From positions 13,875 through 77,874 of the IMG/VR virus record IMGVR_UViG_3300042868_005641: DNA of 64,000 nt. One strand, 5' to 3'. Under the pieces are notes generated by a model. It had not been told where the DNA came from. It saw nothing but the letters and a program-made list of their open reading frames with translations, and did no database searches. A program made the translations under genes and the position numbers. Origin of the DNA: a virus. This document shows positions 15,968 through 56,441 of this stretch, in pieces (the stretch's first letter is position 1; every line of letters starts with the position of its first letter).

Positions 15968-16399
15968 ATGGCAGGATTTACAAAAACAAACGGAACTACC
16001 CAACCGGTATTCCACATGGACACTGCGAATGGTAACATTCAAGGTACAGCTAACATTGCAGCTACAGGCTCAGTTAACTTCCAAGGCCCTAAGCTGGACT
16101 TCTTCAGCTTGGTAGCTAACGGTGCGTTAACAACTTCCGCTAATGTCAATGGCTACATCAACAACCTGATGCAAGCTATTCAGACCAAAGCCACAGTGGC
16201 CATGTATCAGGTCAGCCCAGCAGCACCTACAGTGTTGAACTTGGCTGTGTATCCTACAGGCGCTTACACCAACGTTACATTGCTGGCTACTGCTAACACC
16301 AGTGCTACTGTAGCGTCTGGTGGTCAGAACCTGGAACTGAGCTCATGCGCAGGTAATGCTGTGTTTGTGACCAGCGCAACCAACTTTGCTCCAACCTAA
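15968..16399 (+). CDS. Small virion structural protein
   Basis: TAAATA promoter, strong AGGAG SD, A/T/N/G-rich sequence, own terminator. Confidence 0.55.
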   Translation: MAGFTKTNGTTQPVFHMDTANGNIQGTANIAATGSVNFQGPKLDFFSLVANGALTTSANVNGYINNLMQAIQTKATVAMYQVSPAAPTVLNLAVYPTGAYTNVTLLATANTSATVASGGQNLELSSCAGNAVFVTSATNFAPT

Positions 16400-51335: not shown

Positions 51336-52358
51336 ATGCATCCTCGATTTGGTTTCTGCTGCAAATGGCTCAATAACCCTGACGAAACTGGTGGAATGAA
51401 AGTCAACGCTGTTGACCGTGATATCAACGGTCGAAGTACCACAATGCGTTGGTTGCGTGAACACAAGGACGAAGCAGTACAGCGTCAGTGGGATATCATG
51501 AATCACAATGCTCGTGCAGCATTAATGATGGTCGAGCGTGTGGGTGCAATGGTCCCTGAACGTCGTATGGTTCGCCTGGGCAGTGAAATGCTACAAGGCT
51601 ACACTGAACCCAGCTGGATTTCTTGGTGGCAACAGGCCGATGTGCAAGCGCATTGCGAAAAGATCTTTGCCCCTGTAGGTGAAGCTGCTCGTCGACTTGG
51701 AGTACGGCTCAGTTTCCACCCTGGACAGTTCTGTGTGCTAGCATCAGAAGCTGACGAAATTGTAGAACGCAGCATCTTGGAATTTGAATATCATGCTGAC
51801 ATGGCTCGATGGATGGGTTATGGTGCATCATGGCACGATCATGGATTTAAGATCAATGTACATTTGTCGGGCAAAGGCGGCCCGTCAAAGTTCCTGCGCA
51901 CTCTAGGTCGACTTACACCAGAAGCCAGGAATCTAATCGCTATTGAAAATGATGAGATGACAAATGGTATCGACGTTACTTTACTTGTGGCTGAGCATTG
52001 CGCTCTTACGCTGGATATCCACCACCACTGGATCAACACCGGAGAATACATCACGCCTGCTGACCCTCGCTCGCGTCGCGTTTTGGAGTCTTGGCGTGGT
52101 ACTCGTCCTGCTTTGCACTATAGTGTTAGTCGTGAAGACGTTTTGGTTGATCACAATCCCAATACTCGGCCCGACCTTGAGCAACTCCTTGCAGCTGGAT
52201 ACCGCAAGCAAAAGCTGCGAGCTCATAGCGACTTCATGTGGAATCATGCTGTGACTGACTGGGCTGTGACCTTTGCTGAGGAGTGGGACATGCAGGTAGA
52301 AGCTAAAGGCAAAAACTTGGCCACTGATCAACTGCACCAACATTGGCTGAGTCTGTAA
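51336..52358 (+). CDS. uvsE: UV damage endonuclease
   Basis: GFCC, R.GS, RLSFHPGQF.VL, HLSG, IENDE, LDIHHH, HYS, AHSD and EAK.K. Confidence 0.9.
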   Translation: MHPRFGFCCKWLNNPDETGGMKVNAVDRDINGRSTTMRWLREHKDEAVQRQWDIMNHNARAALMMVERVGAMVPERRMVRLGSEMLQGYTEPSWISWWQQADVQAHCEKIFAPVGEAARRLGVRLSFHPGQFCVLASEADEIVERSILEFEYHADMARWMGYGASWHDHGFKINVHLSGKGGPSKFLRTLGRLTPEARNLIAIENDEMTNGIDVTLLVAEHCALTLDIHHHWINTGEYITPADPRSRRVLESWRGTRPALHYSVSREDVLVDHNPNTRPDLEQLLAAGYRKQKLRAHSDFMWNHAVTDWAVTFAEEWDMQVEAKGKNLATDQLHQHWLSL

Positions 52359-52370
52359 CATAATTGTAAT
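52353..52370 (+). promoter_or_regulatory. Pho box upstream of pstS
   Basis: CTGTAAC-ATAA-TTGTAAT, an 11-bp-period direct repeat resembling CTGTCAT-A(T/A)A(T/A)-CTGT(C/A)A(C/T). Confidence 0.75.
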
Positions 52371-52413
52371 ATTTGAGTGAGTAAATAACTGTATCACTAA
52401 CAAGGAGATCACA

Positions 52414-53409
52414 GTGAAAAAACTCATTACGGTATTACTCTCAGTTGTTGCATTTTGCGCAACAGCACAGGAAATCACAGGAGCCGGAGCAACATTTCCG
52501 GCTCCCCTCTATTCAAAGTGGGCTAGCGAATACAACAAATCGACCAACATTAAAATCAATTATCAATCAGTAGGATCGGGTGCAGGCATCAAACAAATTG
52601 AAGCCAAGACCGTAACATTTGGTGCAAGTGATATGCCACTCACAGATGAGAAACTAGCAGCATCGGGATTGTTTCAATTCCCCACAGCCATTGGTGGTGT
52701 TGTTCCAGTTGTTAATGTTAAAGGTATCGAGCCGGGACAAATGAAATTGTCAGGTGCTGTACTTGCAGACATCTTTCTGGGCAAGATTACCAAGTGGGAT
52801 GATGCTGCTATCAAAGCATTGAATCCTACAATAGCATTGCCAAGTCAAGATATCACAGTTGTTCGCCGTGCAGATGGGTCAGGAACTACATTTATCTGGA
52901 CTAACTATCTAAGCAAAGTAAGCAAAGAGTTTAAAGAAACTATCGGAGAAGGCACTGCGGTTAATTGGAAAACGGGTGCAGGCGGCAAAGGCAATGAAGG
53001 CGTTTCTGCTATGGTTAGACAACTTCCAGGATCATTGGGCTATGTTGAATACGCTTATGTAAAACAAGCCAAAATGAATTGGGTGCAGGTACAGAACGCA
53101 GCAGGCACATGGGTAGCACCAACAGAAGATGCTTTTAAAGCAGCCGCTGCTAATGCTGATTGGAACAAATCATACTTTCAGATTCTAACCAATCAAGCAG
53201 GTAAGGAAGCATGGCCTATCACTGGTGCAACTTTTATCCTGGTATACGTAAAACCCGACGATGCTGCTAAGTCTAAAACAGCATTGGCATTTTTTGATTG
53301 GGCATTTGCCAATGGTGATAAGGCAGCAGATGAGCTAGATTACGTAGCATTGCCCCTGACCGTGAAGAACAAGATTCGTGCAGACTGGAAACGGTTAACA
53401 CTACAGTAA
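52414..53409 (+). CDS. pstS: Phosphate-binding periplasmic protein PstS
   Basis: Signal peptide, GAGATFPAP, YQSVGSGAG, FGASD, RRADGSGTT, GKGNEG, GYVE and WPI. Confidence 0.96.
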   Translation: MKKLITVLLSVVAFCATAQEITGAGATFPAPLYSKWASEYNKSTNIKINYQSVGSGAGIKQIEAKTVTFGASDMPLTDEKLAASGLFQFPTAIGGVVPVVNVKGIEPGQMKLSGAVLADIFLGKITKWDDAAIKALNPTIALPSQDITVVRRADGSGTTFIWTNYLSKVSKEFKETIGEGTAVNWKTGAGGKGNEGVSAMVRQLPGSLGYVEYAYVKQAKMNWVQVQNAAGTWVAPTEDAFKAAAANADWNKSYFQILTNQAGKEAWPITGATFILVYVKPDDAAKSKTALAFFDWAFANGDKAADELDYVALPLTVKNKIRADWKRLTLQ

Positions 53410-53454
53410 ACCGACCGCAAGATTGAGCGGAGGCTGGATCTCGTAACCAGCACT

Positions 53455-53476
53455 AAGAGCCGAAAGGCTCTTTTTT
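53455..53476 (+). terminator. Rho-independent terminator
   Basis: AAGAGCC-GAAA-GGCTCTT followed by a T-run. Confidence 0.88.
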
Positions 53477-53528
53477 ATTGACTTTTATTTCAATAACGAT
53501 ATAAATAGTTTTCAAGGATGGGCATATT

Positions 53529-53687
53529 ATGAAACAATCAAAATTGATCACAAAATTATACCGGGCCTGTGTTGCTCACGATAGTGAAGCAATTGCAAAA
53601 CTTCAGAAAGAAGAGTTTCGTAAAATACGAAAACACAAAGCCCAAGGTAAACCATTTACATCCAAGTGGACTTTGGTACAGATTTAA
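53529..53687 (+). CDS. Small basic protein (52 aa, not in ORF track)
   Basis: [22 protein letters not shown]; TAAATA and AAGGA upstream. Confidence 0.5.
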
Positions 53688-53704
53688 TGTAACACAACTG
53701 TAAC
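53687..53704 (+). promoter_or_regulatory. Pho box upstream of the PlcP-like gene
   Basis: ATGTAAC-ACAA-CTGTAAC, followed by a TATGAT -10-like hexamer. Confidence 0.7.
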
Positions 53705-53736
53705 ATGATTAGTATGATTTTCTGCGTAAATACCCT

Positions 53737-54501
53737 ATGCAGAAAACATACCGATCAATCTTTGTATCTGATGTACACCTTGGTACACGAGATAGCCAAG
53801 CTGAAAAGTTAAACAATTTTCTCAAACACAACACCTGTGATACTCTCTACCTTGTGGGGGATATCATTGATGCATGGAGAATTCAACAAAACAAATGGCG
53901 CTGGAAACAAAGCCACACCAATGTGGTACGGCGTGTGCTAGGTCATGCCAAACGTGGCACTCGTGTGGTTTATATTGCAGGCAATCATGACGAATTCTTG
54001 CGCCCAATGATACCATATGGGTTCAGCTTTGGACTGGTAGAAATACATAATCAAATTGAACATATAGGCGCAAACGGCAAACACTATCTTGTGGTACACG
54101 GAGACTTGTTTGACGGTATAACTAGACTAGCACCATGGATAGCATTTTTAGGAGACAAGGCATATGATGTCATTTTATCGTTTAATAGCAAATTTAATTG
54201 GATACGCCATCGTTTTGGTTTTGGGTACTTTAGTCTTAGTCAATATCTCAAAACAAGAGTAAAGAAAGCTGTGGACTTTATATTCCATTTTGAACGGAAT
54301 CTCGCTGCCTATTGTAAGAAACGTGGGTTTGATGGTGTAATTTGTGGACACATCCATCATGCAGAGATAAAAGAGATAGACGGTATGATCTATATGAATG
54401 ACGGCGACTGGGTAGAATCATGTACCGCATTAGTAGAACATCATGATGGTCGTTGGGAAATAGTTACCTGGATACTGGAGAAAGACAATGAAACTCAGTG
54501 A
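53737..54501 (+). CDS. PlcP/LpxH2-family metallophosphoesterase (phospholipase C-like; usually auto-annotated UDP-2,3-diacylglucosamine hydrolase)
   Basis: SDVHLG, LVGDIID, GNHD, HGD.FD, LGD.AYD, SLS..LK..VKKAV.FI..FE, CGHIH and NDGDWVESCTAL.E. Confidence 0.8.
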   Translation: MQKTYRSIFVSDVHLGTRDSQAEKLNNFLKHNTCDTLYLVGDIIDAWRIQQNKWRWKQSHTNVVRRVLGHAKRGTRVVYIAGNHDEFLRPMIPYGFSFGLVEIHNQIEHIGANGKHYLVVHGDLFDGITRLAPWIAFLGDKAYDVILSFNSKFNWIRHRFGFGYFSLSQYLKTRVKKAVDFIFHFERNLAAYCKKRGFDGVICGHIHHAEIKEIDGMIYMNDGDWVESCTALVEHHDGRWEIVTWILEKDNETQ

Positions 54502-55198
54502 TAAAATTACTATTGTGGTACCTTGCAAGAACGAAGAAAATTATATTCATCACCTATTGTACATGTTGCGTTCGCAGAACATTGGTGATACCAGAATCAT
54601 TATTGCTGACTGTTCTACAGACAACACTAGACAAGTTATACAGGATAACAGTTGGGAATTGAATGTTGAAATAATTCAAGGTGGGCCAGTTTCTGTTGCC
54701 AAGAACAACGGAGCACGATTGGTCACCACACCATACATCTTGTTCATTGACGCTGATGTGCGTTTCTTTAAGTATGATGTGATTCGTGATGCTGTTGATA
54801 AAATTGAATCCGACAATTTAGATCTTGTGGGATTGAACATCAAATGCTATGATCAAGATGTCATAGCCAAGTTTGGATTTGCTGTGTTTAATACCATAAA
54901 TCACACATTAAAATACTTCTCTCCTTTTGCAGTGGGGGCATTTATGCTAACTCGTCGAGACAGATTTGAAGAATACGGTGGGTTTCCTGAAAAGTTCTCA
55001 ACATCTGAAGACTACTTCTTGTCAAGAAAATATAATCCTCGAAAGTTTAAAATTGTCAACCACTATCTTGGACAAGATTCTCGAAGATTTAAAAAGATGG
55101 GATATTTGGGAATGGCCCGATATCTTGTGACAAATTTCATCAACCGCAACAACACGCAATATTGGGATAGATTAGACTCATCTAAGTATTGGAATTAA
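54488..55198 (+). CDS. Glycosyltransferase family 2
   Basis: IVVPCKNEE, D.STD.T, AKN.GA, LFIDAD, GGF.E and SED. Confidence 0.88.
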   Translation: MKLSDKITIVVPCKNEENYIHHLLYMLRSQNIGDTRIIIADCSTDNTRQVIQDNSWELNVEIIQGGPVSVAKNNGARLVTTPYILFIDADVRFFKYDVIRDAVDKIESDNLDLVGLNIKCYDQDVIAKFGFAVFNTINHTLKYFSPFAVGAFMLTRRDRFEEYGGFPEKFSTSEDYFLSRKYNPRKFKIVNHYLGQDSRRFKKMGYLGMARYLVTNFINRNNTQYWDRLDSSKYWN

Positions 55199-55220: not shown

Positions 55221-55712
55221 TTAAAATCCTCGATTGGTAATGACGTGCCAGGTCAACGTTATGACAGGAACAATTATCATACCAGCGCCAACAACTAGCA
55301 ATAGATTCATAATCATGTTGTACATGGCTTCTCGATCTTTTTGTTTCTTATCTGCTATAGCTTTCTCAGCAGCATTACGTTCTTTCATCATGCGTAAACG
55401 TTCAGCTTGCATTTCTTCCCACACAGGAGCATTGCCACTCCAGAACAGCAGGTCTTTGAGTTCACGTTCATTATCTCGTAATGCCTTGGATGCCATGGCA
55501 ATTTCCAAGGCCTTAGCACTGAGTTGTGCATCTGTTTTGCCAACGCTATCCATGCGCATCTTGCTGCTGGCAATATGCACAGCATCAGCAGATTCGTAGA
55601 ATTGACTGAACTCTTTGTATAGTCCATTAACGTCTTTTCCTAATTGTATAGCTGCTTTGATGCCTTTGACTGCGCCTTGAGCCATGGCAAACGCTGTGAA
55701 GGGATCTATCAC
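55221..55712 (-). CDS. Hypothetical protein with C-terminal TM helix
   Basis: MIDP.TA.A N-terminus, coiled coil, hydrophobic C-terminus. Confidence 0.6.
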   Translation of the reverse strand: MIDPFTAFAMAQGAVKGIKAAIQLGKDVNGLYKEFSQFYESADAVHIASSKMRMDSVGKTDAQLSAKALEIAMASKALRDNERELKDLLFWSGNAPVWEEMQAERLRMMKERNAAEKAIADKKQKDREAMYNMIMNLLLVVGAGMIIVPVITLTWHVITNRGF

Positions 55713-55907
55713 TTAGACCCTCCTGACCAATGGTTTTTCTTTAACTTCCCATTTTAAACACACACTGGGTTGATGTTGCGTGTAATCCGCACTGCCGCGC
55801 CAATGCACACACACGTATTCTTGATTTTTGTCTAGAGGTACAGATTGTGGAGAAGAGGCACTAATAGATACAGCAACCAGTGCTACAATGAGGTAAAAGG
55901 TGTGCAT
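55713..55907 (-). CDS. Small secreted protein
   Basis: Signal peptide and C..W...C..W. Confidence 0.5.
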   Translation of the reverse strand: MHTFYLIVALVAVSISASSPQSVPLDKNQEYVCVHWRGSADYTQHQPSVCLKWEVKEKPLVRRV

Positions 55908-55919
55908 GAATCATGGCCG

Positions 55920-56441
55920 TTAGATAAAGAGCCATATTCCTTGTGCCATTAGCACAGCACCGATCAAGCCCACACCAATGCTAGCGTAGAACATGCCCAT
56001 ACTCACTGCTAGAATACTAGCACTCAACAAAACAATACTCAGCTGTAATGCTGATCCTGCAAAGGTCAGCCAAGGGCTGTGTTTCTTGGCCTGGTCACGT
56101 TCTTGCTCCAGCTGTCGAGCACGAGCCATGAGTTCACGTTTGCCTTCGCTAGTGACTGGGTCACTTTCGTAACGATCAATCTTGGCAGTGAGTTCTGCTA
56201 CCTTCTTGACATCATTTCGTGCCAGTGCATCATCACGAGCATTTTCTGCAATGGTTTGTTTGATACTTTTGCTTTGATAAAAGTTCCAAGTATCATTGGC
56301 TCTGATTGTGTTGGTCAACACATTACTACTGATTCCATTGGCAATGTAAGTGTTTACTGCCAGCAGTGCAGCAATCACTGTGATTACCCATCCTGCTTTG
56401 TCTTTGATATGCGCTTCGCGTTCACTACGTGATTCAGCCAT
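55920..56441 (-). CDS. DUF4337-like membrane protein
   Basis: A.LLA, D.WNFYQSKSIK and LQLSIVL.S; AGGAG SD. Confidence 0.65.
   Translation of the reverse strand: MAESRSEREAHIKDKAGWVITVIAALLAVNTYIANGISSNVLTNTIRANDTWNFYQSKSIKQTIAENARDDALARNDVKKVAELTAKIDRYESDPVTSEGKRELMARARQLEQERDQAKKHSPWLTFAGSALQLSIVLLSASILAVSMGMFYASIGVGLIGAVLMAQGIWLFI

Follow-up and report, generated by a model that had tools for sequence, protein, structure and literature searches.

Why would a phage carry, next to the gene of a phosphate-binding protein, a pair of genes that resembles the PlcP-Agt lipid-renovation operons of bacteria? The question is raised by a stretch of viral DNA of 64,000 nucleotides (nt), referred to below as the window, which comprises bases 13875-77874 of the 77,874-bp IMG/VR viral record IMGVR_UViG_3300042868_005641. 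On its plus strand lie pstS (52414-53409), encoding a periplasmic phosphate-binding protein with a signal-like sequence at its N-terminus, a gene for a PlcP-family (LpxH2-type) metallophosphoesterase and putative phospholipase C of 254 amino acids (aa; 53737-54501), and a gene for a family 2 glycosyltransferase (GT2) of 236 aa with a GT-A fold (54488-55198). Both pstS and the phosphoesterase gene are preceded by a plus-strand direct repeat with an 11-bp period that resembles a Pho box, CTGTAACATAATTGTAAT at 52353-52370 and TGTAACACAACTGTAACA at 53687-53704, respectively. An earlier note on this DNA had proposed that the genes form a module for phosphate scavenging and membrane-lipid remodelling under the control of the host regulator PhoB. 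The comparisons presented here support that interpretation at each step that can be examined in sequences. It is considered fairly probable that the module reproduces, in a phage, a part of the phosphate-starvation regulon of bacteria, with which the phage probably strips phosphorus from the host membrane when phosphate is scarce. Direct support exists for the identities of the genes, the assignment of the phosphoesterase to the PlcP-like branch, its conserved pairing with a glycosyltransferase, the promoter geometry, and the restriction of the latter to three gene families.

Identity and spread of the phosphoesterase

The phosphoesterase matches the Pfam family Metallophos, and all of its metal-binding motifs are intact (D12/H14, D42, N83-H84, H121, and H205/H207). 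JGI and GenBank annotations name it UDP-2,3-diacylglucosamine hydrolase or pyrophosphatase, which would make it the LpxH of lipid A synthesis. The two proteins do belong to the same superfamily, solved LpxH structures (5b49 and 8qk2) match the phage protein, albeit weakly (E ~1e-4), and in an alignment with LpxH, extra sequence is inserted after core motif IV and before motif V, at the position where LpxH carries its lipid-binding lid. The protein scores far below the cut-offs of both LpxH equivalog models, however, with 45.3 bits against 134 for NF003743 and 34.9 against 190 for TIGR01854. A homologue with 45-56 % identity is held by 54 of 121 sampled Burkholderiales genomes, whereas the true LpxH proteins retrieved in the same search are only 22-27 % identical. 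Motif III reads GNHD in the phage protein and GNRD in LpxH of P. aeruginosa and of four Burkholderiales; the sequences HLGT, GNHDE, and DGDWVES are common to the phage and the PlcP-like bacterial proteins. In a maximum-likelihood tree, four LpxH proteins are set apart from every PlcP-like protein (support 100/100). The phosphoesterases of lake phages are located beside, not within, the Burkholderiales group in this tree, and the homologues of cultured phages branch further out. Hidden Markov model (HMM) scores, identities, shared motifs, and the tree thus agree with the PlcP/LpxH2 signature that had been noticed before, and in the comparison by phylogeny and HMM that had been set beforehand, the phosphoesterase does not cluster with LpxH. 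Judged by these sequences, it belongs to the PlcP-like branch, and a function as LpxH is extremely unlikely.

In most of the bacterial loci examined, the homologue is directly followed by an open reading frame (ORF) of ~330-357 aa, which encoded a family 4 glycosyltransferase (GT4) in all five cases tested against Pfam. YGTCAY-N5-YGTCAY repeats are present upstream of most of the bacterial plcP homologues examined. A homologue with a GT4 gene downstream matches the plcP-agt operons that have been described in marine bacteria (PMC4796936) and in B. cenocepacia (BCAL2364-2366; PMC13691135). The bacterial relatives are thus located, as had been anticipated, in Pho-box-preceded operons with a neighbouring glycosyltransferase gene. 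In several Burkholderiales genomes, pstS and the plcP homologue are a few kb apart. Together with the resemblance of the phage PstS to that of Burkholderiales (see below), this would fit a proteobacterial source or host, without identifying the host itself.

The phosphoesterase is encoded by at least 597 viral contigs. It is 88-93 % identical in the best 80 of these, while the neighbouring genes in the same phage loci show only 25-85 % identity. Across the relatives, identity amounts to 88-98 % at codon positions 1 and 2 but only to 51-68 % at position 3, a contrast that indicates long divergence under strong purifying selection. Cultured phages carry more distant versions. The homologue of Pelagibacter phage Mosig is 47 % identical and bears the annotation of an LpxH-type hydrolase, and its gene is divergently adjacent to pstS; the adjacency of the two genes recurs independently in this phage. 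The Mosig intergenic region (L117:4841-4992) contains TTAACA-type repeats 11 bp apart, as well as AATAAATA located 5 nt before an ATG, and the repeats may represent a different type of Pho box on the same gene pair. A 37 % identical homologue in Synechococcus phage S-SRM01 is located among photosynthesis-related, host-like genes.

The glycosyltransferase behind the phosphoesterase

The start of the glycosyltransferase gene overlaps the stop of the phosphoesterase gene, as had been noticed before; the overlap is 14 nt long. Its product scores 69.7 bits against PF00535 and 33.1 bits against PF13506 (GT21), above the gathering score of 21.7, a match that overlaps the stronger one to GT2. The Agt architecture, GT4 with a GT-B fold, was not found in the window protein, which is a GT2 instead. 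Residues D88 and D90 (DxD), among others, are invariant across 60 GT2 homologues. An AlphaFold model based on a 60-sequence alignment reached a predicted local distance difference test score of 95.9 (38 for a model from the single sequence), and the solved structures that it matches best are all those of GT-A enzymes, with PcManGT in first place (6yv7, template-modelling score 0.69).

The pairing with the phosphoesterase is a property of the family. In 81 phage loci, the gene of this GT2 is located directly downstream in 66 and a GT4 gene in 10, while in 2 the GT2 gene follows ~700 nt further on and in 3 the contig ends too early; of the 78 relatives for which the sequence extends far enough, 76 thus have a glycosyltransferase gene as the next gene. 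The slot is occupied by either this GT2 or an Agt-like GT4, never by both, and the GT4 of the phages shows 42 % identity, over the full length of the protein, to the bacterial GT4 proteins adjoining plcP homologues. Since the two take turns in a single slot after one and the same enzyme, it is suggested that these unrelated glycosyltransferases do the same task, and this swap is the best evidence that GT2 may act on diacylglycerol. The combination with a GT2 had been called unusual. It is less odd than it had seemed, as GT2 is the usual partner in the phage family and GT-A partners of plcP have already been described in bacteria (PMC4796936). These are glycolipid synthases paired with plcP in some bacteria, namely the processive glycosyltransferase Pgt (GT21), types 3 and 5 in PMC4796936. 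The phage enzyme resembles Pgt/GT21 in its predicted GT-A fold, in its match to GT21 above the gathering score, and in its position directly after plcP. It is, on the other hand, much shorter and carries no transmembrane segment, with no close homology to a characterised Pgt shown.

The glycosyltransferase is the weakest step of the proposed pathway, GT2 on its own being uninformative with regard to its acceptor. PlcP might recover phosphorus alone while GT2 glycosylates polyprenyl phosphate, an envelope polysaccharide, or a lipid other than diacylglycerol. None of the best structural matches of the model, PcManGT, TarS, TarP, and WrtF, is a diacylglycerol transferase; among the NCBIfam models, one for an arsenosugar-type GT2 comes closest, with a score below its cut-off; and homologues in Bacteroidota lie in an unrelated context, beside epimerase and Wzi-like genes. 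The latter are only 21-29 % identical, however, and the overlap of the GT2 start with the PlcP stop codon and the mutually exclusive use of the slot by GT2 and Agt-like GT4 argue against this alternative. Some 60 clusters of GT2 homologues of 230-245 aa, with 30-46 % identity, carry generic names only. The neighbours of the enzyme in the Atlas are short GT2/GT21 proteins and one carotenoid-glycosyltransferase cluster, which point to lipid acceptors, although only as a lead. P0156, the closest cluster outside the phages, has no members in viral contigs and yielded only one close metagenome contig, which is truncated. Taken together, an acceptor other than diacylglycerol is regarded as a minority option that deserves to be kept in mind.

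The Pho-box-like repeats and the TAAATA element

The repeat before pstS is an exact match to the motif, TGTAAC-N5-TGTAAT (52354-52370), and that before the phosphoesterase gene reads TGTAAC-N5-TGTAAC (53688-53704). Each is followed on the plus strand by a TAAATA sequence. The first of these (52382-52387) is separated by 11 nt from the repeat and by 26 nt, which include an AAGGAG ribosome-binding site, from the GTG start codon of pstS; for the second (53727-53732), the distances are 22 nt from the repeat and 4 nt to the ATG of the phosphoesterase gene. The positions of both repeats and both TAAATA sequences are those given in the earlier note. A third exact repeat in the window (16264-16279, minus strand) is located inside a coding sequence without TAAATA and was treated as a chance occurrence.

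In 874 kb of related phage DNA, TGT(A/C)A(C/T)-N5-TGT(A/C)A(C/T) occurs 55 times on the gene strand and 3 times on the opposite strand, representing 45 distinct sites. TAAATA is located exactly 11 nt downstream of the repeat in 37 of the 45 and 21-22 nt downstream in 7. Some sites consist of three phased half-sites. When a box was counted if it was located within 130 nt upstream of a gene, repeats were found before pstS in all five loci, before the gene of a protein designated p215 in 16 of 18, and before the phosphoesterase gene in 28 of 81 (32 of 81 when one mismatch was allowed). None of the 68 GT2 genes or 10 GT4 genes was preceded by a repeat, and random 130-nt windows contained one in 0.8 % of cases. 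The box is thus limited to three gene families: pstS, phosphoesterase, and p215. The Pho-box-like repeat noticed before both genes of the window is thus present on the phosphoesterase gene of only about a third of the relatives.

The p215 genes (L047:7626-8350; also in L024, L026, L030, L032, L037, L042, L052, and L064) have the same Pho-box/TAAATA promoter, and their leader holds a conserved hairpin, GTGTGCCA...TGGCACAC. The protein is acidic, rich in Ala, Val, and Glu, 215 aa long, and has coiled-coil-like ends and no match in Pfam. No copy of it is present in the window.

Bacterial pstS promoters offer a precedent for this geometry. In a PhoB-dependent promoter, two TGTCA-type half-sites 11 bp apart take the place of the -35 element, some 10 nt ahead of the -10 element. 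In small, low-GC Burkholderiales genomes, the pstS promoters are composed of a box, 10 nt, and then TATAAT, TATGAT, or TATCGT, and they include TGTAAT and TGTAAC half-sites. The phage pstS promoter, with its box, 11 nt, and TAAATA, has a comparable PhoB-type layout. In front of the phosphoesterase gene, a TATGAT sequence that resembles a sigma-70-type -10 hexamer better than TAAATA does is located at 53713-53718 (plus strand), 8 nt after the second repeat, and a promoter scan returned GTAACA-18-TATGAT at this place; the bacterial pstS promoter of locus L179, TGTCAC-N5-TGTCAC-N10-TATGAT, is analogous. Half-sites, phasing, and distance to the -10-like element are therefore as in bacterial pstS promoters, in agreement with the Pho-box-like nature ascribed to the repeats. 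A PhoB-type winged-helix domain was not found among the proteins encoded by four complete relatives. Because of this and of the bacterial-type promoter design, host PhoB would be the simplest reader of the box.

A phage factor could take its place. The repeat would then resemble the MotA box of T4 middle promoters, and the infection programme rather than phosphate would set the timing. The phage family is T4-like, as the T4-type capsid protein Gp23 is present in all five relatives tested (E ~1e-99). The repeat is placed at a fixed distance from the phage's own TAAATA, and the half-site TGTAAY is commoner in the phage sites than the canonical TGTCAY. The motif is found before three gene families only, however, two of which are classic members of the Pho regulon, and just twice in the 64-kb window, and bacterial pstS and plcP promoters share its half-sites, phasing, and spacing. 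The missing PhoB-type DNA-binding domain also argues against this explanation, although a novel phage factor would still be compatible with it. Reading of the box by such a factor is considered improbable.

TAAATA itself is found at most 60 nt upstream of 20 of the 99 ORF starts in the window, where 1.3 would be expected, which marks it as a genuine element used generally in front of the genes of this phage. The distances to the start codon fall into two clusters, one of 6-12 nt and one of 22-45 nt, the latter with a ribosome-binding site. A spacing of 6-12 nt leaves little or no leader; about half of the 20 ORFs have this spacing, which suggests that many transcripts are leaderless or nearly so. 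The full sequence TATAAATA has only four copies in the window. TAAATA is the core of the T4 late promoter. As the family is T4-like, the label of late promoter is reasonable by analogy, and TAAATA is regarded as a candidate T4-type late element.

Proposed function of the module

The following course of events is proposed. In a phosphate-starved host, phosphorylated host PhoB would bind to both repeats and switch on two phage transcription units. PstS would be exported to the periplasm and hand phosphate to the PstCAB transporter of the host. The PlcP-family enzyme would cut the phosphorylated head group off membrane phospholipids, leaving diacylglycerol, and the phosphorus released would be used in phage nucleotide synthesis. 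The translationally coupled GT2 would add a sugar to the diacylglycerol, and the resulting phosphorus-free glycolipid would keep the membrane intact until lysis. The binding of PhoB, the phospholipase C activity, the acceptor and sugar of GT2, and the benefit to the phage are what we infer from the genes and promoters described above.

A number of observations weigh against this proposal. The link to PlcP was made via operon structure in Burkholderiales genomes and not by direct alignment with a characterised PlcP; a search of control genomes with the LpxH model returned no locus of a named PlcP. The fold matches of GT2 are generic, the matched enzymes using polyprenyl, teichoic-acid, or sugar acceptors, and the search of Burkholderiales yielded no close GT2 homologue beside plcP, all hits being only 23-34 % identical; a plcP-GT2 pair like that of the phage was not encountered in the bacteria searched. 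Adjacency of pstS to the phosphoesterase gene is rare in the family (five loci). The window contains two exact matches to TGTMAY-N5-TGTMAY where 0.40 would be expected, and as 8 of 100 shuffles also reach two, its two boxes on their own are not significant; the case rests on the relatives. Before the window phosphoesterase gene, the distance from box to TAAATA is 22 nt instead of 11, one helical turn more. TAAATA moreover is a poor sigma-70 -10 hexamer and looks like a T4-type late element, which makes the way in which PhoB would act together with it puzzling.

Finally, ~60 % of the relatives have no box on the phosphoesterase gene, and in many of them it is located behind genes for membrane proteins (DUF4337 and orf163). 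Phosphate control would therefore concern this genome and about a third of the others, not the whole family. The same observation would suit an enzyme pair that remodels the envelope, be it to block superinfection, to change receptor display, or to prepare for lysis, with phosphorus recovery being incidental. A connection between the remodelling of host lipids and the adsorption of phages has been made in two papers (PMC9804370, PMC9938194). The phosphoesterase gene nevertheless shares a control site with pstS in the window and in about a third of the relatives, and its adjacency to pstS recurs independently in Pelagibacter phage Mosig. Envelope remodelling as the primary function is thus judged very improbable. 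The favoured explanation remains phosphorus recovery from the membrane. Its most far-reaching form holds that giant T4-like lake phages mine phospholipid phosphorus by means of a new short GT2 diacylglycerol glycosyltransferase and that phosphorylated host PhoB, from a binding site at a constant distance, switches on RNA polymerase at the phage's own late-type TAAATA; in this complete form the proposal is tentative and rather unlikely to hold. If true, such a hybrid promoter would integrate phosphate status and the phage programme at a single site.

The phage and its relatives

The IMG/VR record was rated 22 % complete by CheckV, which for 77,874 bp implies a genome of ~350 kb; relatives with the phosphoesterase gene include records of 345-525 kb rated 99-100 % complete. 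The window has a GC content of 42.6 %, and its genes include those for phage-type helicases, ribonucleotide reductase, DNA ligase, and a DnaB-like helicase. A DNA search against phage records gave no match for the region. The phage PstS scores 439 bits against the NCBIfam equivalog NF008171 (cut-off 339) and 400 bits against TIGR00975 (cut-off 205), and it is 53-67 % identical to PstS of Burkholderiales.

A genome scan returned phosphoesterase genes at 65-90 % identity in metagenome-assembled genomes (MAGs) labelled Haliscomenobacter, Polynucleobacter, Fischerella, Gammaproteobacteria, and Planctomycetota. The contig from the Haliscomenobacter MAG (L160) was shown to be phage DNA that is syntenic with 44.8-50.8 kb of the window, and synteny of the phage type was present in most of the other high-identity MAG hits. 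Most likely, these copies from mixed phyla are phage DNA binned by mistake, and the MAG taxon labels were left out of host assignment. The family contigs L002, L003, L004, L005, and L160, in MAGs of Haliscomenobacter, Polynucleobacter, Fischerella, and Gammaproteobacteria, look like such binning errors.

Neighbouring genes and elements

Upstream of pstS, a gene for a UvdE-type ultraviolet damage endonuclease (51336-52358) overlaps with its 3' end the first 4 nt of the Pho box of pstS; several relatives have conserved this gene, with 55-84 % identity. On the 3' side of pstS, a hairpin (53455-53472) followed by a T run (together 53455-53480, plus strand) resembles an intrinsic terminator and would separate pstS from the next transcription unit. 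Conserved hairpins precede this terminator in the region 53410-53480. The conserved pstS 3' region is also present in L015, L016, and L018. In L015 (5855-6000), pstS is gone, but its Pho-box promoter and 3' region have been retained immediately before the phosphoesterase gene.

Between the terminator-like element and the phosphoesterase gene lies orf52 (53529-53687, plus strand), which encodes a small basic protein of 52 codons and the stop codon of which abuts the second repeat. It is preceded by a perfect TATAAATA (53500-53507) and is kept upstream of the phosphoesterase gene at 58-71 % identity in 10 related viral loci; no match to it was found in Pfam or PHROG. Beyond the glycosyltransferase gene, the minus strand (55221-56441) encodes a DUF4337 protein, a 163-aa membrane protein, and a 64-aa protein. 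In many relatives, homologues of the first two immediately precede the phosphoesterase gene and are oriented like it, and they may constitute a membrane-related module.

Comparison with known systems

T4-like cyanophages carry pstS and phoA under the control of the host PhoBR system. The window is similar in that pstS is located behind a host-type Pho box in a T4-like phage, so that its expression would follow the phosphate status of the host. It differs from the cyanophages in that the regulon extends to a pair of membrane-lipid enzymes and to an acidic protein of 215 aa and in that the box is of the proteobacterial type (TGTCA/TGTAA) and not of the cyanobacterial one.

Bacterial PlcP-Agt lipid-renovation operons are known from Phaeobacter (MED193_17359), Pelagibacter HTCC7211 (PB7211_983/960), and B. 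cenocepacia (BCAL2364-2366) (PMC4796936, PMC13691135). With these the phage module has in common an enzyme of the same family, related to the Burkholderiales homologues in such operons, a glycosyltransferase gene immediately downstream, and a Pho-box-type repeat upstream, and ten phage relatives even carry an Agt-like GT4. Unlike those operons, it is phage-borne, has the short GT2 instead of GT4 as its usual partner, and has no dagK; the phage promoter joins the box to the phage TAAATA, and the enzyme is smaller than the bacterial forms compared, which measure 262-306 aa.

In line with the statement that no characterised phage lipid-renovation operon was known, a literature search, incomplete for subscription journals, yielded no description of a viral PlcP or of a viral lipid-renovation pathway. 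The literature found covers host lipid remodelling and phage adsorption and lists 'LpxH' among viral genes.

Significance

Phosphorus often limits phage production, and a genome of 350 kb is costly in phosphorus. The viral phosphorus responses known so far concern uptake, by means of pstS and phoA. If the proposal is true, use of the host membrane as a phosphorus store would constitute a new class of auxiliary metabolic gene, and the names LpxH and 'cell wall' glycosyltransferase, by which these genes are widely mis-annotated, would be corrected. The module would also offer a clean test case for a host response regulator that is wired to a phage promoter. Experiments are feasible, as the gene is present in the many viral contigs described above and in cultured phages of Pelagibacter and Synechococcus. 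In a wider sense, viral infection would be linked to the glycolipid pools of lakes and oceans.

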